Notes: generated by a model from the letters alone, not told the origin. Positions 20,471-61,436 are shown, counted from the first letter of the stretch. The stretch is 64,000 nucleotides of DNA from an uncultured Candidatus Saccharibacteria bacterium (GCA_964606285.1 CAZSFP010000002.1:43890-107889), one strand, 5' to 3'. Numbers and translations are program-made.

Positions 20471-20473
20471 TTG

Positions 20474-20857
20474 TGGAACTGGGCGGAATCGAACCGCCGT
20501 GCAATCATATTCTCAATACGAATCTCCGTGTGCAGATTCTTTCTTGTTTTAAATCATCTGTCTATGAAAGAAACAAAACAACAGACGATCGATCCCTGTG
20601 TTTCGGACGCTGTATCGGGAGGTACAACATTCCTATCATGAAATATGAAGCTCACTTTCTTCTATCATGAAATCAAAGAAGTGAACTGCTCGCGATTAAA
20701 CGCGGGCAAAAGCAAAGTTTGCCATACCGAAGTATGGAGACTTTACTCCTGAACGAAATGCGTTTGCATTTACGGTGTTGCAAGAAGTTTTGCGAGATTC
20801 CTGTGGACTCGACACGCACGCACTGAGGACACATGACTGTCTAGGCCTTTCAGTCCC
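20474..20857 (-). ncRNA. ssrA: tmRNA (ssrA), one-piece
   Basis: Minus-strand 5' end GGGACUG pairs with the 3' CAGUUCC. The 3' tRNA-like T-arm is GGCGGUUCGAUUCCGCC followed by CAGUUCC-A. The encoded tail is ACAA, so CCA is not fully encoded. The candidate tag ORF reads …GCA AAC UUU GCU UUU GCC CGC GUU UAA (ANFAFARV*). It lies immediately 3' of smpB. Confidence 0.75.
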
Positions 20858-28143: not shown

Positions 28144-28189
28144 ATACCCCCACACTTACCTTTGAGAAAAGTAAGTGTGGGGGTATACT
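28144..28189 (+). promoter_or_regulatory. Perfect 16-bp-stem hairpin (ATACCCCCACACTTAC…GTAAGTGTGGGGGTAT) whose 3' arm ends in GGGGTATACT, 6 nt upstream of the pilD ATG. It is a compact relative of the CCCGTTAGA cassette arms, and the TATACT is positioned for a leaderless transcript.
   Basis: Inverted repeat at 28144-28159 and 28171-28186. TATACT at 28184-28189 and the ATG at 28196. Confidence 0.45.
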
Positions 28190-28195
28190 TTTTAT

Positions 28196-28993
28196 ATGAC
28201 ATCACTTATTTTGATCCTCTCGTTTGTATTTGGGGCGATTATCGGCAGTTTTCTCAATGTCGTGATCTATCGCATGAACACAGGTCGTTCCTGGGGTGGC
28301 CGATCGCACTGCATGCGCTGTAACAAGCAGCTCGCATGGTATGAATTGATTCCGATTGTCTCATGGCTCGCGCTCCGTGGTCGTTGTCGGTCATGTACGG
28401 CATCTATATCTCCGCAATATATTATCGTTGAGACTATTATGGGTGTTGTGACACTTCTTACTGTGTTAACATTTTTGCCATTGGCAACTATGTCTATAGG
28501 ATCATTCCTCTCACTCTCGCTAATCTACCTTCTCTTTTTCTCAGTACTTGCTGTCATTGCGTTTTATGATATTCGACACAAGGTCATTCCGCATGTACCA
28601 CTCATCCTTCTCGTTGTTGTTGCTGTCTGGATCAAATGTCTCGGTCCAAGTATTTTTCCACTCCAATTACCAGCGTTTGCAAGTTTTGTTCCGATACTGT
28701 TTGCGGTGCCGTTCTGGTTGTTGTCACGATTTTCTCGAGAGACACTCTTTGGTATGGGGGATGTAAAACTGATTGCAATACTCGCTTTTTTCCTCGGGTT
28801 ATGGAACGGATTCCTCATGATCGTTCTCGCATTTGTCATCGGTGCGGTCTACGGCATCGGTCTTGTTCTTTTGAAGAAAGCAGATAAAAAGACACAAGTT
28901 CCTTTCGCCCCATTCCTTATCCTCTCTACTATACTCATCTTCTTTGGGTTCATATCTTTCCCTATGATCTTTTCTCTGTTTTCGGTATACTAG
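28196..28993 (+). CDS. pilD: Prepilin peptidase (A24 family, PilD-like)
   Basis: N-terminal CxxC…CxxC zinc motif, DIRHKVIPH and GMGDVKL catalytic-Asp motifs, and multiple TM segments. Confidence 0.85.
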   Translation: MTSLILILSFVFGAIIGSFLNVVIYRMNTGRSWGGRSHCMRCNKQLAWYELIPIVSWLALRGRCRSCTASISPQYIIVETIMGVVTLLTVLTFLPLATMSIGSFLSLSLIYLLFFSVLAVIAFYDIRHKVIPHVPLILLVVVAVWIKCLGPSIFPLQLPAFASFVPILFAVPFWLLSRFSRETLFGMGDVKLIAILAFFLGLWNGFLMIVLAFVIGAVYGIGLVLLKKADKKTQVPFAPFLILSTILIFFGFISFPMIFSLFSVY

Positions 28994-28997
28994 ATAT

Positions 28998-29121
28998 ATG
29001 AATCCCGTTAGAAGTCACGATCACAATGGGACAATAATCATATGAAAATAAAAAATATTATCAATTTTAATCAAAAAGGAGATGCACGAACAATGATCGT
29101 GATCTACTTCTAACGGGATGA
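28998..29121. repeat. CCCGTTAGA inverted-repeat cassette, copy 2 (ATGAATCCCGTTAGAAGT … ACTTCTAACGGGATGA). The core carries an AAGGAG SD plus a 6-codon uORF (MIVIYF, 29093..29113) that stops 4 nt before the pilin ATG. The right arm contains that ATG.
   Basis: Arms are 14/14 complementary. The terminal motif is the same as copy 1, but the core sequence is different. Confidence 0.6.
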
Positions 29122-29723
29122 GGAAATCTTTTGATCGCGGTGTTACATTTATCGAACTGATCGTTGTCATCGCGATTTTTGGTATCATCGCTGGCATCAT
29201 TCTTTTCAATTACAGTGGATTTGATAGTAATATCAAATTGCAAAATACTATGAATGATATTGCGACAACTGTAAAATCAGCGCAGATTTCCGGCAGTTCT
29301 GGAAAATTTGATACACGGATGGCAGGGGCAATGGCTGCATATCGTCCAACATACGGTATTTATTTCAAGAATGATGCATTGGGAGGGTCTTTTACTTATT
29401 TTGTTGATACACCAAACAATGGCATCATCAACAACAATGCGTTTGATGCAACATTCAACGAAGATATAAAAATCATTGCGTTTCAAAACGGATTTAAAAT
29501 TAACAAGATTTGTTACGATCAAAAAACATTGTCAGTAAATACTAGTTGCGATACTTCCACGACAGCCGAAGCAACCGCTACTTTTACTCGTCCTGATTTG
29601 TTCGCGTATTTGCCGGACGGTATTGGTGGAAAGTATAATGATGTCAATATTACAGTCGAAGCACCGAACGGTATGATGAAGACATTGGTTATCTATGCGT
29701 CTGGTGCGATGTCTATCGAATAA
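29118..29723 (+). CDS. Type IV pilin-like protein (pseudopilin) 1
   Basis: N-terminal prepilin motif …RGVTFIELIVVIAIFGIIAGI…; 201 aa. Confidence 0.8.
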   Translation: MRKSFDRGVTFIELIVVIAIFGIIAGIILFNYSGFDSNIKLQNTMNDIATTVKSAQISGSSGKFDTRMAGAMAAYRPTYGIYFKNDALGGSFTYFVDTPNNGIINNNAFDATFNEDIKIIAFQNGFKINKICYDQKTLSVNTSCDTSTTAEATATFTRPDLFAYLPDGIGGKYNDVNITVEAPNGMMKTLVIYASGAMSIE

Positions 29724-29724
29724 T

Positions 29725-30339
29725 ATGAAAAAAACTATTTCACACAATAAAGGGTTCACACTTGTTGAGATAATGATCGCAACTGGACTGTTTGTTGTTG
29801 TTGTCACAATCGGTATCACAGCAGTGCTCAATATTAATCGTGGTCACAAAAAGACACAAGCATTTCGAACGGCATTTGATAATCTGTCGTTTATCATGGA
29901 AGACATATCTCGCAATGTACGCCTGGGATCAAATATTCATTGTACAGATTTCAATACTGCGTATACACAAATAATTTTATCCATTCCGGCACCGACATCA
30001 TGCGCGGGTGGCAATAGTGCCATCATTTTTACACCACCCAAAAAAGATCCGGCTGCGATCGGAGATTTGTCTGTGTATGCAATCGATACAAATACCGTTG
30101 CTGATTCTGCGGTTCGACTCTATCATTCAATAGATGGCGGTGCGACGTTTAGTGCAGTAACACCAGGCGATATCACCATAGATCCTGCAAAATCCGGTTT
30201 CATGGTTCTCAATGTAGGACAGGGCGAAGCCGGTCAAGCTCGTGTGACGATTCGCTTGGCAGGCATTGTCACATATCGCGATATTACGACACCGTTTGAT
30301 TTGCAGACAACAGTGTCAGCGAGATTGCTCGATCAATAA
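29725..30339 (+). CDS. Type IV pilin-like protein (pseudopilin) 2
   Basis: MKKTISHNKGFTLVEIMIATGLFVVVV… is a class III signal sequence. Start corrected to 29725. Confidence 0.8.
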   Translation: MKKTISHNKGFTLVEIMIATGLFVVVVTIGITAVLNINRGHKKTQAFRTAFDNLSFIMEDISRNVRLGSNIHCTDFNTAYTQIILSIPAPTSCAGGNSAIIFTPPKKDPAAIGDLSVYAIDTNTVADSAVRLYHSIDGGATFSAVTPGDITIDPAKSGFMVLNVGQGEAGQARVTIRLAGIVTYRDITTPFDLQTTVSARLLDQ

Positions 30340-30340
30340 T

Positions 30341-31081
30341 ATGAAAAAAACTATTTTACATAACAAAGGATTCACGCTTATCGAGACACTCGTCGCATTG
30401 TCTATTTTTTCATTGTCCATTGTCGCTCTCATTGTCGCGGCAGGGCAGGGAGTATCGAATTTTCAGACGATCAAGGCACGATTGACTGCGTCCTATCTCG
30501 CCCAAGAAGGTGTTGAACTTGTCCACAATATCCGTGATACAGAAATGGAAACCGGGTCATGGGCTTCATTTATAGGCACATCATCTCCTGTTGCTAATTG
30601 TTTTTTAAATCAAAATCCGAATGGCTGTACTATCGATGCTGTATATGCACCACAAAACATAGACGTACAAGCTTGCACGTCTTCTGTATGTCCGTTTATG
30701 AAATATGACCAGTTTGTCGGCTACAATCATTCACCAACATATCCAACAAATACTGTTTTTAGACGAACTATAGCATTGACTCTTCTTCCATTGAACAATG
30801 AAGTCGAAGTGAAAAGTACGGTGAGTTATACTATAGGCGGCACGACATCACAGATAGTGATGAGTGAAATTCTTACGAATTGGATAGGAAATATTTCTTC
30901 ATCTCCATCGAGTAATCCATCGCCGCAAACAACCGGTTCACAATCTCCTTCAAATACATCACCAAGTAGTTCATCTCCATCTCAACAAACAACAGGGTCG
31001 CAAAATATGTCACAATCACCACAACAGCAAGTACAACAGGGTCAACCACCGTCATCCAATATGATCTCAACAACACCATAA
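30341..31081 (+). CDS. Type IV pilin-like protein (pseudopilin) 3 with S/P/Q-rich C-terminus
   Basis: MKKTILHNKGFTLIETLVALSIFSL… prepilin motif. Start corrected to 30341. Confidence 0.8.
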   Translation: MKKTILHNKGFTLIETLVALSIFSLSIVALIVAAGQGVSNFQTIKARLTASYLAQEGVELVHNIRDTEMETGSWASFIGTSSPVANCFLNQNPNGCTIDAVYAPQNIDVQACTSSVCPFMKYDQFVGYNHSPTYPTNTVFRRTIALTLLPLNNEVEVKSTVSYTIGGTTSQIVMSEILTNWIGNISSSPSSNPSPQTTGSQSPSNTSPSSSSPSQQTTGSQNMSQSPQQQVQQGQPPSSNMISTTP

Positions 31082-31082
31082 T

Positions 31083-33625
<2,543 letters not shown>

Positions 33626-33669: not shown

Positions 33670-35886
33670 TTACGCTTTTGTAAAGTATTTTCGAGTAACG
33701 AGAACGAGGATTGCGATCACGAGTCCGAGAAGGAGCCATCCGAGGAGTGTTCCTGGAAGGAATCCACCAGAACCGAAGAGGGCGAGGCCGGCAAGATTTG
33801 AATTTGATGAACCATTGTTCGACATGTTTTGTGTCGCGTACGCGGTGACATCATGATTCGTATTTGCTGTTCCTGTCGCGAAACTCATTTTTGCAGTTGT
33901 AACGAGAAGATCTCGATTTGTTGCATTCTTGAGGATAGTTCCAGTCACTGTGAATGATCCACTTTGGTGTGCGCCGATAGTACCGAGTGATACGATGAGT
34001 GCGCCATCAGATGCGATTGATCCTGCTGTTGAACGAGTGAGTGCAATTTCTTGTGGTGGGAGAACACGAACGATAGTTTGTTTGAGGTTCGTACCAGTCA
34101 AGTTCTTGTACTTCACGGTAAATGTTGTTTGATCGCCGACATAGACGTTTTCATAGTCAGGCGTGATAGAGAATGAAACGTATTGTGTGCCATTTCCTGA
34201 TGTCACATATACTGTTGTATTTGTGACAGTTGGAGTTGTTGGTTGAACGATTGGGAACACACATGATCCGTTGTTTACTGTCGCTTGTGGGTTATAGTTT
34301 GTCGCTGATGCTACTGTACAACCATAGATTGCTTGTGGTGGCTGAACAGGGAATATACATGAACCGTTGTTGATAGTTGCCTGTGGATTGTAGTTGAGTG
34401 CACCTGAAATAGTACAACCATATATTTGTGTTTGTGGGAACACACATGATCCGTTGTTTACTGTCGCTTGTGGGTTGTAATTCGTTGCTGATACAATTGT
34501 ACATCCATAAACCTGTGGTGGATTTTGTACATAGGTACATGTTCCATTACCAATTGTCGCTTGTGGATTGTAGTTTGTCGCTGATGGGTCAGTACATCCA
34601 TAGACTTGAGTTTGTGTAAAAGTACATGAACCGTTATCGACAGTCGCGTTCGGATTGTAATTGTTTGCAGTTGGATTTGTACAGCCAGAAATTGGTGTAA
34701 CAATGTTTTGACCGACTTGGAATTTAAGGACGATAGATCCTTGTGTGCTCCATCCTTGAGCGATTGTACCGATGTCGATACCGCCTGCAAAGATTGCAGA
34801 CTCACTTTGTCCGTTTGGAAGTGGTTGTGCTGTCTGAGATTGGTTTGGATACCATTTTACAGATCCAGGAATAAAAGTAAGTGTTTGTGATGATGTGATC
34901 GAAACATTGGCACTACCAGAAACTGCTGGTGCGTTGTCTGCAGAGACAGAACCAGAGAGATTGTGCATTGTTGATGCGCCGAGTGACTGTGCTGAAGTAA
35001 CGCGGAGTTTTGTATGGGTCGCAGCAGCAATACCATTGTTATGATAGTAGATTGTCATCGAAACGACATTTCCTGCTTGGAGAATAGCGTTTGAACATGT
35101 GTTATTTGATCCAGGAATAGATGTTGTCCAACATGTTGTTGTGATGCCGTGTTGTGTAAAGTTCATGGCACGAACTGTTGGTCGATCTGAAACGTTGTTA
35201 TTGAAAACTGTTTGTGCTGATGTTTGTACTTCTGGAATGACAAATGTCATTGAACCAGTTGCGTACATCGGAAGGCCTCCGTAGACAGCATATGCTTTTA
35301 CATAGTATGTACCTGGTGTGAGGTTTGAAACAGTAGATTGAAAACTTGGTGTTCCGTTTTGGAATGTTCCGTTTGTCGAAAGTGTCATCGCTGTTGTTGG
35401 TCCGTATTTGAAAAACGTTTGAACTCCTGTTGTGCCGATGTTTGAAAATCCACGAAGTGTAACATCATTGCCGTTAACAATAGGTGCGATATTTTGAACA
35501 GCCGCTTGTGTCACAGTAAATGACACGGCAGTTCCATAGAGTGGGGTGCCGCCTGAAACAGGGAAGCCAACCGCACGGAAATAATATGTTCCCGGGGTTG
35601 AGATCACAACTGGACTTGAAGAGAAAGAAGATGAGCCAGTTGTATTCGAAAGGGCTGTTGTATTCGAAAGGGAATTCGTGTTTGGTCCCCATTGGAATCC
35701 CTTTTGATATGTCTGACCTTGCGTGTTGATAAAGCCGTTAAAAGTAACGGTTGCACCACTGACCATTGCGGGAATTGTGGAGATAGATGGATTTGCTGCC
35801 TTGACGACAGACGGAGCAACGAGTCCTCCGACGAGGGCGATTGCAACGAGAAATCCTTTGATTGTAAGCATATTTTTGATATTCAT
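33670..35886 (-). CDS. Large secreted/cell-surface protein with five 28-aa Cys-containing tandem repeats (YGCTxxSATNYNPQATxxNGSCxFP) and a C-terminal TM anchor preceded by an LPGT(L) sortase-signal-like motif
   Basis: N-terminal signal peptide. Repeats span aa 400-548. C-terminus is …GGFLPGTLLGWLLLGLVIAILVLVTRKYFTKA. Confidence 0.6.
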   Translation of the reverse strand: MNIKNMLTIKGFLVAIALVGGLVAPSVVKAANPSISTIPAMVSGATVTFNGFINTQGQTYQKGFQWGPNTNSLSNTTALSNTTGSSSFSSSPVVISTPGTYYFRAVGFPVSGGTPLYGTAVSFTVTQAAVQNIAPIVNGNDVTLRGFSNIGTTGVQTFFKYGPTTAMTLSTNGTFQNGTPSFQSTVSNLTPGTYYVKAYAVYGGLPMYATGSMTFVIPEVQTSAQTVFNNNVSDRPTVRAMNFTQHGITTTCWTTSIPGSNNTCSNAILQAGNVVSMTIYYHNNGIAAATHTKLRVTSAQSLGASTMHNLSGSVSADNAPAVSGSANVSITSSQTLTFIPGSVKWYPNQSQTAQPLPNGQSESAIFAGGIDIGTIAQGWSTQGSIVLKFQVGQNIVTPISGCTNPTANNYNPNATVDNGSCTFTQTQVYGCTDPSATNYNPQATIGNGTCTYVQNPPQVYGCTIVSATNYNPQATVNNGSCVFPQTQIYGCTISGALNYNPQATINNGSCIFPVQPPQAIYGCTVASATNYNPQATVNNGSCVFPIVQPTTPTVTNTTVYVTSGNGTQYVSFSITPDYENVYVGDQTTFTVKYKNLTGTNLKQTIVRVLPPQEIALTRSTAGSIASDGALIVSLGTIGAHQSGSFTVTGTILKNATNRDLLVTTAKMSFATGTANTNHDVTAYATQNMSNNGSSNSNLAGLALFGSGGFLPGTLLGWLLLGLVIAILVLVTRKYFTKA
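34243..34689 (-). repeat. Five tandem roughly 84-bp coding repeats inside the surface-protein gene
   Basis: Repeated TGTACAACCATA…/TGTACATCCATA… blocks in the DNA and YGCT…NGSC in the protein. Confidence 0.7.
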
Positions 35887-36620: not shown

Positions 36621-39005
36621 ATGAAAAAAATGATTCGATTGGGCATGCTTATGGTATGCCTGGTGTTAGCCTTCACAGCAACAAAAGCGCAAGAACAAGG
36701 TTTCTACATAGTAGAAACCAATATTCCAACAAATGTTACATCAACCGGAGGAAATCTACGTGGTGAATTTACAGCCAGTAGTGCAGTGAATGTAGGGTTT
36801 CAAATGAGACCCTTGGATTCACTGTTTACCCCAACTGATTATTTTTTCGGAATGACCAGTAGTAATCCTGTTTTCTCGGATTCAATTAATTATGTTGCAA
36901 GTTCATTGTTTACAGGTGTGCCGTATTATTACCGTTTGGTAATGGTGCGTCCTTTGTATAACGATACTATTTACGGACAAGCAATTGCATTTACACCAAC
37001 GGCACAAGTTGTGGTGGCACCGGTAGTTACCAATGTTCAGCTTAGTTCAGTTACATACAGTTCGATGAATGTATCTTCGTATATAAATACGCAAGGTGCA
37101 AATACGAATTGGCGAGTTAAAATGGGAACAACATTTCCATTGCCGGTCGTTACTGGCTGGATGAACATGGGAACAGTATCAGCAACAGTTTCAACAATCA
37201 TCGCGGTTCCATCAGGAGAACTGGTGCACGTTGAGATCGAAGCAAACAATGGACAAACTGCAACATCGTCACCGGTGTCACAGCAAATCCCGAATGCACC
37301 GATTGCTGATGCGACATGTGCATTGCCGGTAGTAAGTGGTACCACTTGGAATTCAATCAGCTTGCAATCACAAGTTACAACCAACAACAGTCAAACTGAC
37401 ATGAACTGGGAATGGGGAACACAAATTCCTTCGAACAGTTCAACAGGATGGTTGGTGTTCGGTTCGATCAGTGGTAATGCAAATGTAACGATCCCAAATC
37501 TGATAGAAAATACACAGTACATTATTCGTGCTACGTGCAGAAACCAGACAGGGAATGTTCACGTTACAGACTACATTACTGCAACGACAAACAGTCAGCC
37601 ACAAAATTTACCACCAGCAATTGCAACAGCACTGAGTGCGAATACAAGCAGTGTTACAGTAAACGGAACGTGGTCTGCTTCGGGAGTATTTCCGAGTACT
37701 ATCAGAACGGAATATGCACTTAATGCAAATTTCTCTTTTCCGGTAAGTATTGTTTCTCAAAATAATTACAATACACTACAAGGAAATGAGGTGGTAACAA
37801 TCAGTCCATTGAATTCAAATCAACAAGTTTGGGTTCGTCAGATTATTACGAACAGTTCTGGAAGTGATACATCTATTGCGACAATTACCACAGCAGAAAA
37901 TATCGTTCAGGTAACGGTAGGTAATGCAGTGGTTGTGTCTCAATCTGTTGGACAAACAACAATCAGTTTTGTTGTTTCGATGGGGAGTGATTCTCCGGCT
38001 CTTATGGAGCTCGAGGGGTCACTTGATCCACAATTCGGAACAATTACTGAATTTGCATCTGCAAATGTGACTGCAAGCGGAACACAATCATTGAACGCAT
38101 CTTCTGTGCTCTTGTCTGCCGGTTCAACATGGTACATGCGTGTTCGTGCAAGTGATTCGAATAGCAACACTGTTTCAAATACAGTTGTTGTCACAATCCC
38201 TCCGGATCTTGCAGTGCCGACAATCATTGCTGCAACGGTAACTGATACCACCAACGATGGTGGAACAGTTGTCGTAAATTACAACGGTAATGGTAATGCA
38301 ACACAGCTTACACTGTATTCAGGGTTATCAGGTACCACACTCAATGATTCAGTATCACAATTTGGATCATCCGGTTCTGGATCAGCTTCATTTACATTGA
38401 CTGGTTATCTTGAAAATACACAAGTATTTTATCAAGTGAAAGCGACCAGTATTGCTGGATCAGTATGGAGTAATGTTCAATCGTTTGTAACAACGCAAGA
38501 CATCTTGCTTGTGCCTCCAACGGTAGCAACGATCAGTGCCTGGGGAAATTCCTCAGGTGGAAAAATCAAATATAGCTATGCAGCTGTAAATGATTTTCAA
38601 GCATGGGGTGAAGTAACTCAAAACAATTGGAGTACAATCACTCCGACTGCAGTAGAAATAAAATCTGCAGGTGCAGGTATTGATACACTCACGATTGATG
38701 GACCACTTGCCAACGGCACGTATGCTGTTCAGGTGGTGGGTTATGTTATCAATCACGCTCCAGTAAATGGGGGAGTTGCCACGTTTACAGTTGGTTCTGT
38801 CGGTATACCCGAACTGATGAAAAGGATAAAGTTCGAAGGAGTTTTATTTTTGAATTCAGTTGAAGGAAAACTGATGGGAATGCATACTGTAAAGCAATTT
38901 ACTGACATTAGTTTCTTGTACACGGAGACACCAACAGGAGTGTATAATTACACTCTCATAGAGGACAATAAAGTCCTTGGTAGCGGTAAGTTGTTTGTGA
39001 GATAG
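36621..39005 (+). CDS. Large secreted protein with multiple fibronectin type III-like domains
   Basis: Signal peptide MKKMIRLGMLMVCLVLAFTATKA. Recurrent FN3-like signatures are YYYRL, YIIRATCRNQTGN, WYMRVRASDSN, VFYQVKATSIAGS and TYAVQVVGY. 794 aa. Confidence 0.6.
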   Translation: MKKMIRLGMLMVCLVLAFTATKAQEQGFYIVETNIPTNVTSTGGNLRGEFTASSAVNVGFQMRPLDSLFTPTDYFFGMTSSNPVFSDSINYVASSLFTGVPYYYRLVMVRPLYNDTIYGQAIAFTPTAQVVVAPVVTNVQLSSVTYSSMNVSSYINTQGANTNWRVKMGTTFPLPVVTGWMNMGTVSATVSTIIAVPSGELVHVEIEANNGQTATSSPVSQQIPNAPIADATCALPVVSGTTWNSISLQSQVTTNNSQTDMNWEWGTQIPSNSSTGWLVFGSISGNANVTIPNLIENTQYIIRATCRNQTGNVHVTDYITATTNSQPQNLPPAIATALSANTSSVTVNGTWSASGVFPSTIRTEYALNANFSFPVSIVSQNNYNTLQGNEVVTISPLNSNQQVWVRQIITNSSGSDTSIATITTAENIVQVTVGNAVVVSQSVGQTTISFVVSMGSDSPALMELEGSLDPQFGTITEFASANVTASGTQSLNASSVLLSAGSTWYMRVRASDSNSNTVSNTVVVTIPPDLAVPTIIAATVTDTTNDGGTVVVNYNGNGNATQLTLYSGLSGTTLNDSVSQFGSSGSGSASFTLTGYLENTQVFYQVKATSIAGSVWSNVQSFVTTQDILLVPPTVATISAWGNSSGGKIKYSYAAVNDFQAWGEVTQNNWSTITPTAVEIKSAGAGIDTLTIDGPLANGTYAVQVVGYVINHAPVNGGVATFTVGSVGIPELMKRIKFEGVLFLNSVEGKLMGMHTVKQFTDISFLYTETPTGVYNYTLIEDNKVLGSGKLFVR

Positions 39006-50245: not shown

Positions 50246-50325
50246 TAGATTGTAACAACCTTTCATTTTTATCTAAAGACATTTTTTAAATGTCTTTTTG
50301 ATCAGATGAAAGAATTTTTATTCTC

Positions 50326-52305
50326 ATGAAGCAAGACACTATTACTTATTTTGCAGAAACGGATTATCGTAACAAACGAACGCGTTTTGGTATCAAAGCG
50401 TCTGATCGGTCTCGTCATATGTATGTCATCGGAAAGACGGGTATGGGTAAATCGACTCTTTTGGAAAATATGGCCATTCAGGACATTCAGAATGGTGAAG
50501 GTATGGCGTTTATCGATCCGCACGGTGGCACCGTCGAAAAACTCCTCGATTATATTCCTGAGCATCGCATCCAAGACGTTGTTTATTTCGCACCGTTCGA
50601 TCTCGAATATCCGATGGCGTTCAATGTCATGGAAAATATCGGTGCTGACAAACGACACCTTGTTGCTTCAGGTCTCATGAGTACATTCAAAAAAATCTGG
50701 GTGGATGCATGGAGCGCCCGCATGGAATACATATTGAACAATACGATTCTTGCGTTGCTTGAATATCCGGAAGCGACCCTCATGGGTGTCAACAAAATGC
50801 TCTCGGATAAAGAATTTCGAAAAACTGTTCTCGAGCACGTGACTGACCCGTCAGTCAAATCTTTTTGGATAGATGAATTTGCGAAATATACCGAACGTAT
50901 GGCGCAAGAGGCTGTGCCTGCGATTCAAAACAAGATTGGTCAGTTTACTGCCAATCCACTCATTCGAAATATTATTTCCCAGCCGACATCATCATTTGAT
51001 ATTCGTGACATGATGGACAAGAAAAAAATACTTCTCATTAACTTGTCCAAGGGCCGGATCGGCGAACAAAACGCTGCACTCCTCGGTGGTATGCTTATCA
51101 CAAAGATTTATCTCGCAGCAATGTCGCGTGCTGATATATCTGCATCGACCCTTGAATCTTTGCCGTCATTTTATTTCTTTGTTGATGAATTCCAGTCTTT
51201 TGCCAGTGATAGTTTTGCGGATATTCTTTCTGAGGCCAGAAAATACAAGCTTGCGATGACGATTACTCACCAGTACGTCGAACAAATGGGAGACGAAGTC
51301 AAGGCGGCGGTGTTCGGTAACGTCGGTACCATGGTGATTTTCCGTGTAGGTTCGACTGATGCGGATATTTTTGAAAAAGAATTTGCCCCTGTGTTTACTG
51401 CTGAAGACATCGTAAATCTCGACAAACGGCAGATTTATCTCCGTCTCATGATTGATGGTGTCGGATCAAAACCATTTTCTGCCGTCACGTTGCCGCCGAT
51501 CCAGATCGCAGGTGGTGTATCGTTTCGTGAACAGGTTATTGCAGCATCACGACAACAATATACGACTGATCGAAAGATTGTTGAAGATAAAATCAAAATT
51601 TGGATTGAAGCGGGTCGCGATACAACTGAGAAGAAGCCTAAAAAGCCGTACGATCCTTCCTATGTGCCGAAATCGTATCAAGGTCAGCAAGGGACACAGT
51701 ATCAATCTCAGTCTCCATCGCAATCATCATATCAACAGCCACAGACACAACCATACAAAAAACCATTTGCGCCACGACCGTCTGGTCCGTCGCCGAAACT
51801 ACATGATCTTCTGCAAAAACTTGAAGCAGGAGATATTGTGCCAGTTGAAGATATACAGCCGGTAGTACAAAAAGAAATTGTAAAACCAGTCATTCCTCCG
51901 CCGCCGGTAGTCAATAAAATTCCAGCCGCGGAAGCAAAATCTCACTTCACTGAAGTTCGTCTACCGGACGGACAAGTTTCTCGGGATAAAGAAGAAAAAA
52001 ATATTTCGCACGCACCACATGGGTCACTTCGAGATGCTCCACTCAAACCACAAGGCCTCGCGCCAAAAATGGCGGCAAAAGTTACCGGCAAGAACAATGA
52101 TGTCTTGAAACAAGCACTTGCCCGAGCGCTTGAAAAAAAGGTCCTCCAACCAGCAGAAACGGTTTCATCGCAAGAATCAGTTGTATCAGCATCAAGTGCT
52201 GTTCCAGAAAAAAAAGAAGAACCTGTGCTACAGTCTCCACAGCAACAGTCACCACAAAAGAAACGAGAAGTACCTGAAGATGTATTGCGACGAATTCTTG
52301 AATAA
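50326..52305 (+). CDS. TraD/VirD4-like (T4SS coupling-protein family) ATPase, paralog 2, with Q/P-rich C-terminal low-complexity tail
   Basis: HMYVIGKTGMGKSTLLENMAIQDIQNGEGMAFIDPHG, ILLINLSKGRIGE, FFVDEFQSF and SEARKYKLAMTITHQY are collinear with the C-terminal half of ORF 12413..15136. Confidence 0.7.
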   Translation: MKQDTITYFAETDYRNKRTRFGIKASDRSRHMYVIGKTGMGKSTLLENMAIQDIQNGEGMAFIDPHGGTVEKLLDYIPEHRIQDVVYFAPFDLEYPMAFNVMENIGADKRHLVASGLMSTFKKIWVDAWSARMEYILNNTILALLEYPEATLMGVNKMLSDKEFRKTVLEHVTDPSVKSFWIDEFAKYTERMAQEAVPAIQNKIGQFTANPLIRNIISQPTSSFDIRDMMDKKKILLINLSKGRIGEQNAALLGGMLITKIYLAAMSRADISASTLESLPSFYFFVDEFQSFASDSFADILSEARKYKLAMTITHQYVEQMGDEVKAAVFGNVGTMVIFRVGSTDADIFEKEFAPVFTAEDIVNLDKRQIYLRLMIDGVGSKPFSAVTLPPIQIAGGVSFREQVIAASRQQYTTDRKIVEDKIKIWIEAGRDTTEKKPKKPYDPSYVPKSYQGQQGTQYQSQSPSQSSYQQPQTQPYKKPFAPRPSGPSPKLHDLLQKLEAGDIVPVEDIQPVVQKEIVKPVIPPPPVVNKIPAAEAKSHFTEVRLPDGQVSRDKEEKNISHAPHGSLRDAPLKPQGLAPKMAAKVTGKNNDVLKQALARALEKKVLQPAETVSSQESVVSASSAVPEKKEEPVLQSPQQQSPQKKREVPEDVLRRILE

Positions 52306-52316
52306 AATAAACTCGT

Positions 52317-53699
52317 ATGAAAAAGATTTTCCTTCTCAGTCTATCTTTTATATCAGTTCATGCTTGTCATGCTTCGGTCATGTTTTCTGAAATCATGTAT
52401 GATCTCGATGGTACTGATACGGATCGTGAATGGGTAGAAATTTATAACGGAGGATCTGACAGCATTGATCTGTCTACTTGGAAATTTTTTGAAGGAAATA
52501 CAAATCACAGTCTCGTTCCTGTAGACGGTAGTGGAACACTTGCTGCAAATACGTATGCAGTTATCGCTGATAAACCAGATACTTTTCGAATTGACTGGCC
52601 GAATTATTCTGGACTGTTGTTTGATTCAAGTTTTTCTCTAACTAATGATCCGGGTGAGACATTGTCACTCAAGGACGCAAGTCTTGCCGTTATTGATACG
52701 ATAACATATACGAATACCAGTGGTGCTCAAGGTGACGGAAATTCCTTGCAGAAAATGAACAGTATTTTGATATCAGCAGCACCTACTCCAGGTGCAGTAA
52801 ATAGTGCTGGTGATTCAGGGGGAGGTGATTCATCACTGGCTGATAGTAGTGGATCTATAGCACCTGCTCCCAAAATCATAGAATCGACAGTCTCTAAAAT
52901 ACAAACTGATATCATCGTACCGCAGACGATTTTTTCCGGCATTTCATTTCAATGTAAAACAAAAACAATCGGTTTTGCATCTGAGAATAGAAATCACGGT
53001 TCGTGGATATGGTCATTTGGTGATGGAAACGCAATTGAGCAAAAAACAAATGATCCATTTTCTTGTATGTATGAATATCCTGGGACATATGTGATGACAC
53101 TTGCGTATAGAACAAATCCATATCTTCCGGAACCCGATGCGACGGACCGTGTTCTTGTTACGGTGGTTGCACCAGATTTGGTTATTTCATCACTGTTGCC
53201 TGACGGGGGAGTAGTACTCAAAAATATGTCGTCGAAAGAAATCGATGTTTCAGGTTGGAAAATAACACGAGGTGCAACAGTGTTTGTATTTCCATCAACA
53301 ACTATTTTTCTTCCAAACAAAGAACTGACTATTAGTCAAAAACATTCTCATCTCTCAACTGATATTCCTGTAACACTTTTCAATCCCGCTGGTGATAGTA
53401 TTTCGATATTTCCCACACCTGTTGTCTCGAAATTTTCTTCAGGTGTTTCATCTACTGTTCGTACTACTTCTCCATCGTCTTCGAGAGTATATACACCTAT
53501 TGCACCAGAAACAGCAGAGAAAAAAGACGGTGCATTGCTCGCGAGTGTCGCAGCTGTACCGGCTGCAAAAAAACCCTGGAAAGCAGTTTTACCGTTTGCT
53601 GGATTTGCGCTTGTCTCTGGTCTCGGTGGTTATACGTGGTGGCGGTACTCAAGACCTCCAAAGGTGGAAGATGAGGATGACTATGAAATAGTTGAATAA
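52317..53699 (+). CDS. Secreted, C-terminally membrane-anchored protein with lamin-tail-domain (LTD)-like repeats
   Basis: Signal peptide. FSEIMYDLDGTDTDREWVEIYNGGSDSIDLSTWKF resembles the LTD motif (SEI…EWIEL.N…DLSGW). A second LTD-like block is …KNMSSKEIDVSGWKITRG…. C-terminal TM is VLPFAGFALVSGLGGYTWW. Confidence 0.5.
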   Translation: MKKIFLLSLSFISVHACHASVMFSEIMYDLDGTDTDREWVEIYNGGSDSIDLSTWKFFEGNTNHSLVPVDGSGTLAANTYAVIADKPDTFRIDWPNYSGLLFDSSFSLTNDPGETLSLKDASLAVIDTITYTNTSGAQGDGNSLQKMNSILISAAPTPGAVNSAGDSGGGDSSLADSSGSIAPAPKIIESTVSKIQTDIIVPQTIFSGISFQCKTKTIGFASENRNHGSWIWSFGDGNAIEQKTNDPFSCMYEYPGTYVMTLAYRTNPYLPEPDATDRVLVTVVAPDLVISSLLPDGGVVLKNMSSKEIDVSGWKITRGATVFVFPSTTIFLPNKELTISQKHSHLSTDIPVTLFNPAGDSISIFPTPVVSKFSSGVSSTVRTTSPSSSRVYTPIAPETAEKKDGALLASVAAVPAAKKPWKAVLPFAGFALVSGLGGYTWWRYSRPPKVEDEDDYEIVE

Positions 53700-53735
53700 T
53701 AAAAACTCTGTGGTCACAGAGTTTTTATTATTTAT
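53700..53735. terminator. Bidirectional terminator (AAAAACTCTGTGgtCACAGAGTTTTT)
   Basis: Perfect 10-bp stem between convergent genes. Confidence 0.65.
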
Positions 53736-54436
53736 CGGACGGTATTTGTAAAGTTAAATGACACAGACGTATTGTCTTTTATCGTTATAATCTTTTCTGT
53801 ATTTGTTCTGATATTTCCGATTGGTGGGAGAATGATAGTATAGGATCCATTAACAAGTGTTGTTTCAAATGTACCTGATGGATTGATAGTGACAGAAGTT
53901 ATTGCACCGGTTGAGGATCTGATAGATGCGGACATGTTTTCAAAGACATACAGTGGACACTCACCTTTATGTGTTGCTTCACAGACATTTGTTACTGTAA
54001 TAACTCCCGTAAGTGTGTGTGATGCTACAGCTGGGGTACTGTTGGTCATGGTGTCATTTCCTCCGGATGTTGTTTGTTCTCCTGTTGTGTCAGGAATTTT
54101 TGCCGCAGGTTCCATGAAGGTTGTCGATTCTATTTGAGTAGAAGAAACAGTTTCAAGAGGGATCGGTTCTATCAACATAGATTTGAAAGGATAGAGCGTA
54201 TCACCGGGATTTGCTTTTGTTGCAAAAAATGTCAAGCCGCTTGTTGCAATAACGAGACCAAGTGTGAGAAAAACCGCACCTTCGAGTAACTTGCTCGTAT
54301 ACCATGGCGAACGAATAGGGGCGCTCACTGGGTGTTTGGCGACGAACATCGAAATCTGCGCGCGTATGCGTGATTTTTCTTCAGCGGTCATGCTGATGTT
54401 TTTTAGTTCTTTGATTGTTTCGTTGAAGTTGTTCAT
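53732..54436 (-). CDS. Putative anti-sigma factor (single-TM membrane protein) co-transcribed with the ECF sigma factor
   Basis: 234 aa with a cytoplasmic N-terminal helix (…MTAEEKSRIRAQI…) and a TM segment (AVFLTLGLVIATSGLTFF). Its start overlaps the upstream sigma-factor stop (ATGA). Confidence 0.5.
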   Translation of the reverse strand: MNNFNETIKELKNISMTAEEKSRIRAQISMFVAKHPVSAPIRSPWYTSKLLEGAVFLTLGLVIATSGLTFFATKANPGDTLYPFKSMLIEPIPLETVSSTQIESTTFMEPAAKIPDTTGEQTTSGGNDTMTNSTPAVASHTLTGVITVTNVCEATHKGECPLYVFENMSASIRSSTGAITSVTINPSGTFETTLVNGSYTIILPPIGNIRTNTEKIITIKDNTSVSFNFTNTVR

Positions 54437-54963
54437 AGAGGTTCTGGAACGTCGCTACCGAGCACTGTTTTCAATTTCTCGAGACCGCGATGGATTTTGA
54501 CTGATGTGGCGTTCTCACTGGCACCAGTGATCTCAGCTATTTCTTTGATTGAGAGATCATCAATATATCGAAGCGTCAGGACATCGCGATATTTCTCATC
54601 AAGAGTTGATAGTGCATCGCGAGCACGCGTGGCATCAAAGATCGTTTCGTGCCGTTCTGTGACATCAACAGAATCTTTGATGTCAAACGTTTCTACTTCG
54701 AGCATCGCATCGAGAGAATAGGATTTTTTCTTGCGACGGTAATCAATGATCAGATTGGTCGCGACTTTGTATAAAAAGGGACGGATCTGATCAACTTTTT
54801 TGCCAGCAGAGAGATATTCCCATGTTTTCGTAAATGTGTCCTGTGCGAGATCGAGTGCGAGCTGGTGGTCGCTCGTCTGAATTTTGCAGTAGCGAAAAAT
54901 AGCATCCGCATACATCTCGTATGCTTCGAGGAATTCTGTCTCGATGTGTTGCCCGGTTGTCAT
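54433..54963 (-). CDS. RNA polymerase ECF-type sigma-70 factor
   Basis: Sigma-2 (…FLYKVATNLIIDYRRKKK…) and sigma-4 (…LTLRYIDDLSIKEIAEITGASENATSVKIHRG…) regions. Start taken at MTTGQ (54963) inside the longer ORF. Confidence 0.8.
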   Translation of the reverse strand: MTTGQHIETEFLEAYEMYADAIFRYCKIQTSDHQLALDLAQDTFTKTWEYLSAGKKVDQIRPFLYKVATNLIIDYRRKKKSYSLDAMLEVETFDIKDSVDVTERHETIFDATRARDALSTLDEKYRDVLTLRYIDDLSIKEIAEITGASENATSVKIHRGLEKLKTVLGSDVPEPL

Positions 54964-55338
54964 GTTGCTTTGATATAGAGACGGAAGACATAGTGTCTTC
55001 TTACAAGGTAAGTATACGAATTTTAGCCTGATAAGAAAAGGGGAAAACAAACAAGCCCGGCTATTTAGCACGGGCTGTTTTTCTTTCTTTCTTTTGTTCA
55101 AAATGCATTTGAAGGAGAACACATCCTGCGATGACTGCGAAGCCAAGTATAGAAGTGATAATCCCCGTTTTCATGTCAGTAACATCTGTGTGAATAAATG
55201 AAGAAAGAATGTCGATAAATTTTGATTTCATTTTTTTATTTTTTTGTTCGTTTCACCTAATATGACGACACATATTTGCATATCTTACAAGGTTTAGAAA
55301 ACCTTTTAAAAATAAGGGTTATATGGCATACTTGGGTC

Positions 55339-56562
55339 ATGCAGCAGAAAAAGAAGGTTGTTATCGTCGGTGGCGGATTTGGTGGTATACGTACCGCCCG
55401 CGCACTTGATCGTTACCGAGATAGTCTCGATGTTATTCTTATTTCTGACAAAACATACTTTGAATATTATCCCGCATTGTATCGCCTCGTCACTGGTGCA
55501 TCACCGATCGAGGCCTGTGTATCACTCGAAGAAATGCTCTCTGGTACCGAGACATTAATCGTGCATGACAAGATCGTCTCAGTCGATAGTACACAAAAAT
55601 CTTGTACGGGAGCAAGTGGGGAAACATATCATGGTGATGCACTCGTACTTGCGCTTGGTAGTCAAACCGCATACTTCAATATTCCCGGACTTCCTGATCT
55701 TTCGTTTGGTTTCAAATCAGTCCACGAAGCACTTGAACTTAAAAAACATCTGCATGATTTATTTGTTTCCTGCAAAGATTCTCTGAAAGACGAATTGGTC
55801 TCTCATTTTCATGTTGTTATCGTCGGTGGCGGCGCATCTGGTGTTGAAGTTGCAGGTGATATGTCAGCGTTCCTTAAAAAAATTGCAAAGAAACACAATG
55901 TGACGCCGTCGTTCGTAACGATTGATATTGTTGAGGCTGCACCGCGACTGATCGCACAAATGCCGGAGAAAGTTTCAGGTCGTATCGAGGCACGACTTCG
56001 AAAAAATGGCGTGAATATATTTCTCAACCGCGCCCTTGTTCGCGAAGAAGTCGAAGGGGTCTATATGAAAGACATGTCGCTCGATGCAAAGACAGTGATT
56101 TGGACCGCGGGAACAGAAGTTAATCCGCTTTATAAAACTATCAGTGGTTTTTCTTTCAATCAAAAAGGCCGTGTCCTCGTCAATGAATATCTGGAAGCAA
56201 AAAACATTTCTGGGGTTTATATCGTCGGAGATGGGGCAGATACGCCGTATACTGGTCTTGCTCAAACTGCGATCCATAATGCGGATTTTGTCGCAAAAGA
56301 CATCGGACGAATACTTGTTGGAAACAAAAAACGATCTGTCTATGAACCTCGAAAAACAGCATTTGTCATTCCTGTGGGGGACGATTGGGCAATTTTTTCA
56401 TATAAACAATTCATGTTTTCTGGTTGGTTTGCATATCTCCTTCGTCATGTTGTTGATTTTCAATTCTTTGCTCGAACCGTTTCGATTTCAACATTATTCG
56501 CTATATTTTTTCGTGGATGGAAATATCGTTCCATCGATGAAGACTGTCCACTATGCCGATAA
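55339..56562 (+). CDS. ndh: Type II NADH dehydrogenase (NDH-2, FAD-dependent pyridine nucleotide-disulfide oxidoreductase)
   Basis: Two GxGxxG dinucleotide folds (VVIVGGGFGG; VVIVGGGASG) and an NDH-2-like C-terminal membrane-anchor region. Confidence 0.8.
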   Translation: MQQKKKVVIVGGGFGGIRTARALDRYRDSLDVILISDKTYFEYYPALYRLVTGASPIEACVSLEEMLSGTETLIVHDKIVSVDSTQKSCTGASGETYHGDALVLALGSQTAYFNIPGLPDLSFGFKSVHEALELKKHLHDLFVSCKDSLKDELVSHFHVVIVGGGASGVEVAGDMSAFLKKIAKKHNVTPSFVTIDIVEAAPRLIAQMPEKVSGRIEARLRKNGVNIFLNRALVREEVEGVYMKDMSLDAKTVIWTAGTEVNPLYKTISGFSFNQKGRVLVNEYLEAKNISGVYIVGDGADTPYTGLAQTAIHNADFVAKDIGRILVGNKKRSVYEPRKTAFVIPVGDDWAIFSYKQFMFSGWFAYLLRHVVDFQFFARTVSISTLFAIFFRGWKYRSIDEDCPLCR

Positions 56563-57329
56563 AAAAACCAACAACCTGGAGTGCTGTTGCGCCGTGGTAT
56601 GACACACTGCTTGAAGGCAGTGCTGACACGTATCAGAGTGCAGTTATCGCACCGAATCTGCTTCGCGTGCTTGATCTCAAAAAAGGGGACAAAGTACTCG
56701 ACCTCGCGTGTGGTCAGGGATTTTTTAGTCGATTGCTTCATGATGCCGGTGCACGCGTGACCGGTGCTGACATATCCGCTGAGTTGATCGCCATCGCCAA
56801 AGAACGTTCACCAAAAGACATATCTTACAAAATTTCTCCATCGCATTCGTTGCCATTTATGACTGACTTGGGGCAAGACGCAGTGCTCATCGTGCTAGCT
56901 CTCGAAAATATCAAGGATGTTGCCGGAACGCTTGTCGAAGCATCCCGCGTACTTCTTCCAAATGGTCACATCTCGATCGTACTTATGCATCCGGCATTTC
57001 GTATTCCTCGCGACAGTGGGTGGATGTATGATGCACCAACACAGAAACAAATGCGCACTATCTCATCGTATCTCTCTGAGAAAGAATACGAGATCGTCAT
57101 GAATCCCGGAGAAACGAATAAAAACAAACAAGTCAAAACCATTTCCTATCACCGATCACTCCAGTGGTACATGAAAACATTTCGCAAGGCCGGTCTCGCC
57201 ATCACTCGTCTCGAAGAATGGATATCTCACAAAGAATCAGGCAAGGGTCCGCGCAAAGCGACTGAGGATACTGCTCGCAAAGAAATACCTATGTTTCTCT
57301 ATGTAGAATTGGTAAAAATCACAAAATAA
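56553..57329 (+). CDS. Class I SAM-dependent methyltransferase
   Basis: Motif I VLDLACGQGFFS and motif post-I; 258 aa. Confidence 0.7.
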   Translation: MPIKKPTTWSAVAPWYDTLLEGSADTYQSAVIAPNLLRVLDLKKGDKVLDLACGQGFFSRLLHDAGARVTGADISAELIAIAKERSPKDISYKISPSHSLPFMTDLGQDAVLIVLALENIKDVAGTLVEASRVLLPNGHISIVLMHPAFRIPRDSGWMYDAPTQKQMRTISSYLSEKEYEIVMNPGETNKNKQVKTISYHRSLQWYMKTFRKAGLAITRLEEWISHKESGKGPRKATEDTARKEIPMFLYVELVKITK

Positions 57330-61360: not shown

Positions 61361-61436
61361 TCCTCGGTAGCTCAGTTGGTAGAGCGCCTCCCTGTTAAGG
61401 AGGATGTCCTAGGTTCGAGCCCTAGCCGAGGAGCCA
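61361..61436 (+). tRNA. tRNA-Asn (anticodon GTT), CCA encoded
   Basis: Acceptor TCCTCGG/CCGAGGA, D-arm GCTCAGTTGGTAGAGC, anticodon stem-loop CCTCC-CTGTTAA-GGAGG, T-arm GGTTCGAGCCC, discriminator G, then CCA. Confidence 0.9.

Follow-up and report, generated by a model that had tools for sequence, protein, structure and literature searches.

The window, by which we mean the whole 64,000-nucleotide stretch of DNA that was analyzed (GCA_964606285.1 CAZSFP010000002.1:43890-107889), comes from the chromosome of a Parcubacteria/Paceibacteria-type patescibacterium of the candidate phyla radiation. It contains the gene of a TraD/VirD4-like ATPase (50326-52305, plus strand, 659 amino acids [aa]), directly followed by the gene of a surface protein with lamin tail domains (LTD protein; 52317-53699, plus strand, 460 aa). 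The reading that we favor, and to which we give roughly an even chance, is that both proteins form a conserved, cotranslated module, in which a motor of the type IV coupling protein (T4CP) type without a transmembrane (TM) segment acts at the membrane together with an LTD surface protein that is anchored by its tail. An initial annotation of this region had proposed four open reading frames (ORFs), namely, the ATPase, the LTD protein, and a convergent sigma/anti-sigma pair, all of which are present at the coordinates that it gave.

The ATPase has the fold of a T4CP yet lacks two defining features of T4CPs, the membrane domain and the linkage to a type IV secretion system (T4SS). Its Pfam matches included TrwB_AAD_bind (PF10412; 45.4 bits, cut-off 20.5, residues 26 to 345) and, both above threshold, T4SS-DNA_transf (34.1 bits) and DUF87 (26.7 bits); the score for TraG-D_C (21.0 bits) was slightly under the cut-off of 22. 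A sequence search of the PDB with the ATPase retrieved nothing beyond a Walker A-level match to TrwB. When the AlphaFold model, which is confident over residues 1 to 430, was compared with known structures by Foldseek, the best full-length match was TrwBdeltaN70 (TM-score of 0.60 to 0.64 over ~415 columns, ~16% identity), followed by DotL and Cag-beta, with HerA (TM-score of 0.45) and VirB4 ranking lower. In the core (residues 1 to 435; 50326-51630, plus strand), an all-alpha domain (helices at residues ~107 to 231) is inserted into a TrwB/VirD4-like nucleotide-binding domain. Walker A (GKTGMGKS, residues 36 to 43), Walker B (VDEFQ, residues 286 to 290), and other catalytic positions did not vary among 36 homologues.

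Hydropathy analysis detected no TM segment in the ATPase (19-residue maximum, 1.27), and a TM-like segment was present in only 4 of 191 homologues with a short N terminus. The protein starts 36 residues ahead of Walker A, which corresponds to the start point of TrwB once its membrane domain is removed. A HAS-barrel N-domain was not found, as two short beta-strands alone precede the P-loop in the AlphaFold model. The NCBIfam equivalogs for TraD/VirD4 were not reached either, the best being conju_CD1115 (54.5 bits, cut-off 250), with TraD models at 39 to 45 bits (cut-offs 366 to 647). We regard the protein as a probable soluble, hexamer-type P-loop ATPase of the T4CP lineage (TrwB/VirD4/TraD) that would have lost the N-terminal membrane domain.

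The core is followed by a tail of ~225 residues (436 to 659) that is rich in Pro, Gln, and Ser (31 Pro, 24 Gln) and has a pI of 9.5. Residues 436 to 647 (51631-52266, plus strand) were modeled with a predicted local distance difference test (pLDDT) score of <50, with disorder extending over residues ~432 to 647; composition and pLDDT thus agree with the Q/P-rich disordered tail noted in the initial annotation. Short conserved helices lie at residues 493 to 499 and 591 to 602 (consensus SLxxL and NxxxLKxAL), with another at 651 to 658. The tail terminates in a conserved peptide, EVPEDVLRRILE; positions 52267-52305 (plus strand) encode REVPEDVLRRILE and include the stop codon. Its family consensus is KEVPEDVLRKILE, with E648, P650, E651, L654, and L658 near-invariant, and the motif was found in 103 of 120 homologues. 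As the EVPEDVLRKILE peptide is net acidic, a direct membrane-targeting function as a helix is improbable.

Sequence identity over the same genome pairs was 69% for the ATPase core, compared to 58% for RsmI, 50% for DUF4015, 48% for MurC/D, and 31% for the LTD protein. Judging from these alignments, the core is under very strong purifying selection, and by the same measure the ATPase is among the most conserved genes of its neighborhood.

The initial annotation described the second gene product as a secreted, C-terminally anchored protein with two LTD-like blocks and named a Pfam scan as a check. That scan returned a strong match to LTD (PF00932; 91.6 bits, cut-off 34.3) in two stretches, so that the objection of a missing LTD match falls away, and the AlphaFold model likewise bears the description out. 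According to the model, with its signal helix at residues 2 to 13 and its confident beta-sandwiches, and a 23-sequence alignment, the protein consists of a signal peptide (residues 1 to 19), LTD1 (21 to 154), an S/G-rich linker, a PKD-like domain (196 to 284), LTD2 (288 to 365), a disordered stalk, and a TM helix (424 to 444). The helix is followed by a few basic residues and the acidic-hydrophobic C-terminal peptide EDEDDYEIVE. Scores of the region between the two LTDs against the PKD models PF18911 and PF00801 (23.6 and 20.9 bits) were slightly under the respective cut-offs (27 and 23.5); precomputed PKD matches exist for most homologues, and a WxFGDG motif is present here, as is a beta-sandwich at residues 196 to 284.

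The cytoplasmic tail of the LTD protein (53649-53696, plus strand) ends in the motif [A/S][E/D]D[F/I/M/Y]x[I/L][I/V/M]E-COOH, which was seen in most of 120 homologues. When this motif was evaluated as a genome-wide sorting signal, no other ORF of the window was found to have such an ending. The ectodomain is acidic (pI 4.5), as it is across the family (median 4.65, 99% below 6), and the charges of the acidic LTD tail and the basic ATPase tail are complementary. When the model of the LTD protein was submitted to Foldseek, the matches were generic tandem Ig-like arrays only (complement C3/C5, SorCS2), which provided no functional clue.

Two further features of these termini were observed. The ends of both proteins resemble each other (PEDVLRRILE at 52267-52302 and EDDYEIVE at 53670-53696), with a common pattern of acidic residues, a hydrophobic residue, 1 to 3 residues, two aliphatic residues, and a terminal Glu; this likeness may reflect recognition of both by one receptor or may be a coincidence. 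In addition, a minority of LTD family proteins (P0339, P0343, P0367, P0375, P0385, and P0386) carry a basic amphipathic C terminus, e.g., GFWSKIIAFFKSIFR, instead of the TM helix and acidic peptide; the LTD gene of one of these (P0339) has no neighboring ATPase gene.

The ATPase and LTD genes are closely spaced, as initially annotated, although the spacer measures 11 nucleotides (nt; 52306-52316) rather than 12. An AT-rich hairpin followed by a U-run (50260-50312, plus strand) lies in the 80-nt spacer 3' of a SpoU-type methyltransferase gene (minimum free energy of -18.1 kcal/mol, z-score of -3.7). It is probably the terminator of that gene and would insulate the ATPase-LTD unit upstream. On the other side, a perfect 17-bp hairpin between an A-run and a U-run (53695-53732; -17.6 kcal/mol, z-score of -8.4, 0 of 200 shuffles folding as well) has the features of an intrinsic terminator that serves both the LTD gene and the anti-sigma-like gene convergent to it. 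With hairpins on both sides, positions 50326-53699 probably constitute a self-contained two-gene operon.

The recurrence of the gene pair was assessed in 80 species-level loci around ATPase orthologues (cores 68 to 77% identical), of which 76 were usable. These loci were chosen by ATPase similarity, genes were called by longest-ORF heuristics, and the adjacency counts are raw numbers without phylogenetic correction. An LTD family ORF starting between -100 and +1,500 nt from the ATPase stop codon was present in 28 of the 76 loci, so that the suggestion that the two genes might never be neighbors in other genomes does not hold. In 24 loci the LTD gene was the immediate next gene after the ATPase gene, at a median distance of 2 nt (interquartile range, -4 to 10.5), a tighter spacing than for any other neighbor. 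The LTD-adjacent state was dispersed over the ATPase tree. In the reverse direction, 11 LTD family proteins from a separate homology search were looked up by exact protein on their contigs, and a TrwB_AAD_bind ATPase was encoded directly 5' of the LTD family gene in 8 cases and was missing in 3.

The pair occurs in several flanking contexts: (i) between DUF4015 and GT4 glycosyltransferase genes; (ii) between two genes of the Cys-rich m2 family, described below, and methyltransferase, uracil-DNA glycosylase, MurA, and MurB genes; (iii) ahead of oxidoreductase and uracil-DNA glycosylase genes; (iv) with tandem ATPase genes; and (v) in the arrangement of the window. The commonest locus has the order MurD-MurC-RsmI-small TM protein-DUF4015-ATPase-(LTD)-three to six GT4-GtrA-GT4-GT2-methyltransferase, the LTD gene being variably present, and DUF4015 was found 5' of the ATPase in 45 of the 76 loci. 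Gene spacing and order thus show a tight, recurrent adjacency across Paceibacteria-type species in several contexts, with an apparent translational coupling of the two genes. Together, the LTD match, the adjacency in both sampling directions, and the unrelated contexts back the earlier proposal that the ATPase and LTD genes are a module. Within the literature library that was searched, no paper combined "lamin tail domain" with Patescibacteria. A gene of the uracil-DNA glycosylase family (PF03167) is located one to three genes 3' of the pair in loci L001, L013, L044, L081, L083, L087, L088, and L090; the window has none.

In the module that we favor, the LTD protein would be exported by the Sec system and anchored at its C terminus, displaying LTD-PKD-LTD on a flexible stalk, and would act jointly with the ATPase at the membrane. 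It may provide the ATPase, in trans, with a membrane anchor and an extracellular binding part. In canonical T4CPs, such parts are present in cis or are contributed by the secretion channel. Docking could occur through the cytoplasmic end peptide of the LTD protein, the terminal peptide of the ATPase, or both, by analogy with the binding of the TraD tail to TraM or the recognition of C-terminal signals by T4CPs. The module would probably not serve conjugation. Its presumed ancestral location, at the start of an operon for envelope glycans (DUF4015, three to six GT4 genes, GtrA, GT2, and methyltransferase), suggests a function at the cell surface, e.g., the handling of a surface or secreted macromolecule.

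Several observations weigh against such a module, and some of them fit the main alternative, in which the two genes are neighbors by descent. According to this alternative, the ATPase is a cytoplasmic housekeeping motor, acting, e.g., on DNA, RNA, or nucleoprotein, whose gene came by chance to lie at the start of an old envelope operon, and the LTD protein is an independent adhesin or glycan binder. In ~60% of the close relatives, the ATPase gene has no neighboring LTD gene, and mostly glycosyltransferase genes are located directly 3' of it instead. LTD family genes with the same tail motif also occur away from the ATPase, in a PfkB context (P0370, P0335), and some LTD proteins encoded next to the ATPase lack the tail motif (L003, L076, P0360). 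The terminal peptide of the ATPase does not track LTD adjacency, being present in 17 of 28 loci with and 27 of 48 loci without an adjacent LTD gene. Furthermore, all neighbors are far less conserved than the ATPase core. The ATPase evolves far more slowly than the LTD protein, which is unusual for tightly coevolving partners and suggests that it is chiefly constrained by a universal substrate, possibly nucleic acid. When a more distant clade was sampled via P0227 (49% identical; 72 loci among L091-L170), LTD adjacency was observed in only 3 of 72 loci, and the ATPase neighbors were quite different, unrelated housekeeping genes (SecD/F, PGK, DHH, RNase H, DnaK, and EF-P). The pairing is thus clade limited, and its rarity together with the unrelated neighbors in the distant clade indicates that part of the synteny may reflect inheritance rather than function; functionally unrelated genes (RsmI, Mur ligases) are syntenic, too. 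However, the pair is kept while its surroundings change in at least four contexts, and its genes are spaced or overlap more tightly than other neighbors. Most of the independently retrieved LTD family genes adjoin an ATPase gene, and hairpins set the pair of the window apart as a bicistron. On balance, we consider mere coinheritance rather unlikely.

The initial annotation suggested DNA capture at the surface coupled to an ATP-driven translocase, with the LTD ectodomain binding extracellular DNA and the T4CP-derived ATPase acting as an uptake motor. Canonical T4CPs are indeed DNA-dependent ATPases, the best-matching Pfam family is named for DNA binding, and there is a weak, P-loop-level similarity to the archaeal DNA import ATPases CedB and CedD. 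The extracellular nuclease ExeM contains LTD domains (E value of 0.0015; PMC6085458), the ATPase tail is basic, and many homologues have a zinc finger in their tails. Patescibacteria are auxotrophic for nucleotides and have natural competence (PMC10633639), and the high conservation of the core would fit a universal substrate. However, the ectodomain is strongly acidic family-wide, and neither the ATPase nor the LTD protein would be able to form a channel. No channel-forming protein, nuclease, ComEC, ComEA, or DprA was encoded in the ~240 loci examined, and no linkage to ComEC, ComEA, ComFA, DprA, or pilus genes was detected in the neighborhood within the window or in related loci. Competence of Saccharibacteria requires ComEC and type IV pili (PMC12857230). 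The pilin cluster of the window is ~19 to 20 kb away, and the recurrently linked genes are glycan biosynthetic (DUF4015, GT4, GtrA, and GT2). The coupling of DNA capture to a translocase was thus not borne out, and we regard it as improbable.

The ATPase could also be a true coupling protein of a patescibacterial T4SS that is encoded apart from virB4 and delivers substrates to this channel; the LTD protein would then be its accessory factor or receptor. T4CPs are its best fold match, and according to the passages of PMC12102498 on which we draw here and below, 2,417 of 3,035 Patescibacteria genomes encode a VirB4-based T4SS, and other bacteria often have their T4CP genes at a distance from virB4. 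However, the ATPase has no TM domain for docking at a T4SS and is far under the equivalog cut-offs for TraD/VirD4. Neither VirB4, VirB6, nor relaxase domains were found in the window ORFs scanned or in 76 + 10 + 72 related loci. In the same passages, 5,713 VirD4-like T4CP homologues are reported from 2,918 of the 3,035 genomes (~96%), i.e., from more genomes than contain VirB4 and with about two copies per genome, and only 148 of them are near virB4. For S. epibionticum, they describe the T4CP homologue as dispensable and the T4SS as essential, citing the transposon sequencing study PMC10633639, in which no recognizable coupling or relaxase protein was reported for this T4SS. We consider a function in a T4SS very improbable.

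An antiphage ATPase of the HerA or MADS type has next to no probability: the PADLOC matches to mad8 (E value of 2.6e-16) and HerA models are weak and generic and come without partner genes (no adjacent NurA, Sir2, DUF4297, or MADS methylase gene), TrwB fits better than the HerA structures among the Foldseek matches (TM-score of 0.63 versus 0.45; no HAS-barrel N-domain), and a near-universal, single-locus, highly conserved chromosomal gene is the opposite of defense island behavior. The contig of a relative encodes a bona fide FtsK, so that the ATPase is not an FtsK replacement there.

The window encodes a second member of the ATPase family, referred to here as paralogue 1 (12413-15136, plus strand, 907 aa). 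Its status as a genuine paralogue is shown by 40% identity to the ATPase across 418 residues (E value of 3e-99); it has the same core, no tail, and an N-terminal extension of ~480 aa. This extension is homologous to a separate protein of ~450 aa, m1 (hidden Markov model E value of 1.7e-23), whose gene is located directly 5' of the ATPase in 36 of the 72 distant-clade loci; 27 of 33 m1 cases showed a TM segment at the N terminus. The homology points to a fusion/fission relation between the ATPase and a membrane partner. The linkage of m1 and its fusion in paralogue 1 indicate that close linkage or fusion of the ATPase family to membrane proteins is a broader pattern.

Both ATPases of the window belong to the orphan T4CP homologues that almost all Patescibacteria possess, with about two copies in each genome, and for which exaptation is "not ruled out" by the authors in the passages of PMC12102498 cited above. 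We tentatively suggest, as a possibility short of an even chance, that the near-universal, TM-less T4CP-like ATPases of Patescibacteria are not remnants of conjugation systems but the motors of an unrecognized, T4SS-independent envelope machine that gained its membrane and extracellular parts in trans. These parts would be LTD-PKD-LTD, attached via terminal peptides, in Paceibacteria and the 2-TM protein m1 in other clades, the latter being fused in paralogue 1. Such a machine, if it exists, could couple surface events (host or substrate binding, or the handling of surface glycoproteins or nucleic acids) to an intracellular ATP-driven translocase.

Other genes also accompany members of this ATPase family. 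The Cys-rich cytoplasmic family m2 (~570 aa) is encoded next to the ATPase, often in tandem (L081, 1-3638; L083, 1-3040; L088, 1-953; and 14 loci of L091-L170), and its only Pfam similarity is a faint one to zf_Tbcl_2. Many ATPase homologues carry the same treble-clef zinc finger (PF23477) in their disordered tails, and the ATPase of the window lacks it. Tandem T4CP-like ATPase genes (L090, 193-3973; L096, L097, L102, L105, L108, L113, and L119) combine a short tail-less copy (~440 to 510 aa) with a long-tailed copy.

The genes convergent to the pair were assigned to a sigma factor of the extracytoplasmic function (ECF) type and its anti-sigma factor in the initial annotation. The sigma factor (54433-54963, minus strand, 176 aa) is confirmed as an ECF-type sigma-70 factor with regions 2 and 4 only (Sigma70_r2, 39.5 bits; r4_2, 57.8 bits; TIGR02937, 85.2 bits, cut-off 42.9; no match for region 3). 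For the single-pass membrane protein encoded by the adjacent ORF (53732-54436, minus strand), the 4-nt overlap with the sigma gene and the single TM segment (residues 54 to 72) were as described. No match was obtained in Pfam and NCBIfam, including anti-sigma domains (e.g., zf-HC2, RskA, or RsiW type), so that the putative anti-sigma assignment refers to position and topology only. Its extracytoplasmic part is T/S rich, and homologues were found in the closest relatives only. Sigma homologues neighbor the ATPase-LTD pair in just 4 of the 76 loci, those of the four closest relatives, and a terminator hairpin separates the two gene pairs. The sigma/anti-sigma pair is thus not part of the module but a lineage-specific insertion and an unrelated neighbor. 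In L013, L044, and L087, an oxidoreductase gene follows directly 3' of the LTD gene with no sigma pair in between. In the window, genes of the FAD/NAD(P) disulfide-oxidoreductase family and of a class I S-adenosylmethionine-dependent methyltransferase (55276-57329, plus strand) recur 3' of the pair in relatives and are probably the ancestral continuation of the locus as it was before the insertion.

The window further contains housekeeping genes (SecY, Adk, Map, FtsH, GatA, LigA, SecA, DnaE, RNase HII, tmRNA, and others), and relatives of the ATPase come from genomes named Nomura-, Taylor-, Zambryski-, Yonath-, Wolfe-, and Lloydbacteria. Among the partners known from relatives that were sought in the window (DUF4015, GT4, Mur ligases, RsmI, m1, m2, and uracil-DNA glycosylase, as well as the methyltransferase and oxidoreductase), no more than three were found, namely, the methyltransferase, the oxidoreductase, and m1 in its fused form in paralogue 1. 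The cluster 28175-31571 (plus strand) comprises a prepilin peptidase gene (Peptidase_A24) followed by pilin-like ORFs. Of the four pseudopilins annotated there, three have an N_methyl match, but the fourth (31083-31571) has no Pfam match and only a KGFAILFT-like N terminus; the cluster shows no synteny with the ATPase-LTD pair in relatives. Between positions 48000 and 57500, a search of Rfam (E values up to 0.1) detected no RNA family, and promoter-like matches were at chance level (10 observed versus 11.7 expected). The tmRNA gene (20473-20857, minus strand) encodes the tag ANAFRSGVKSPYFGMANFAFARV, and a tRNA-Asn(GTT) gene is located at 61361-61436 (plus strand). Two large ORFs (33670-35886, minus strand, 738 aa; 36621-39005, plus strand, 794 aa) had no confident family assignment, the first yielding a subthreshold match to DUF11 only.

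Patescibacteria account for a large share of bacterial diversity, and in the passages of PMC12102498, ~96% of their genomes carry VirD4-like ATPases that are unlinked to a secretion system and have no assigned role. The recurrent pairing described here provides a testable lead on the role of these near-universal orphan ATPases. For one paralogue type, it adds the missing membrane domain, the high conservation, and the predicted translational coupling to a specific tail-anchored surface protein with a conserved cytoplasmic peptide. If the ATPase and the LTD protein form a complex, this would be a new way to build a motor of the coupling protein type, with anchor and ectodomain supplied in trans, and a candidate part of the host interaction or envelope assembly apparatus of these episymbionts. 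If they form no complex, the region represents ordinary conserved synteny and the ATPase stays an orphan.

Among known systems, the ATPase most resembles T4CPs (TrwB of R388, VirD4, TraD, DotL, and Cag-beta), with which it shares the RecA-like nucleotide-binding domain, the inserted all-alpha domain, and a variable extension at the C terminus that terminates with a short conserved peptide; the TraM-binding tail of F-plasmid TraD has the same build. Unlike T4CPs, it has no N-terminal TM domain and is not encoded with VirB4, a relaxase, or a mobile element. It is chromosomal and near-universal in the phylum, and its core is ~69% identical between species, in contrast to fast-diverging plasmid T4CPs. 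T4CPs are hexameric, DNA-stimulated ATPases, properties that the ATPase of the window may share. Like the orphan VirD4-like homologues described by Quinonero-Coronel et al. 2025 (PMC12102498), the ATPase and paralogue 1 are present at about two per genome, away from virB4, with no function assigned in the passages that we cite. Those passages describe neither the lack of a TM domain nor the existence of two architectures (N-extended versus C-tailed), and they include neither the LTD partner nor the glycan operon context.

With HerA-NurA, FtsK, and VirB4, the ATPase shares membership in the P-loop ASCE superfamily, as reflected in weak DUF87/HerA profile and fold matches. It differs from HerA and FtsK in having no HAS-barrel, no NurA partner, and no FtsK alpha or gamma domains. 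The LTD protein resembles bacterial extracellular LTD proteins (the ExeM nuclease of Shewanella and CotH/LTD proteins) in its secreted N-terminal LTD beta-sandwich and strong PF00932 match. Unlike these, it has no catalytic domain, displays LTD-PKD-LTD on a stalk, continues into a TM helix near the C terminus and a conserved cytoplasmic end peptide, has an acidic surface, and is encoded after an ATPase. Finally, the succession of folded core, low-complexity linker, and terminal peptide of ~10 residues in the ATPase recalls the C-terminal linker and peptide of FtsZ (bound by FtsA/ZipA), the SSB tip, and TraD-TraM, an analogy that suggests a tethering function.

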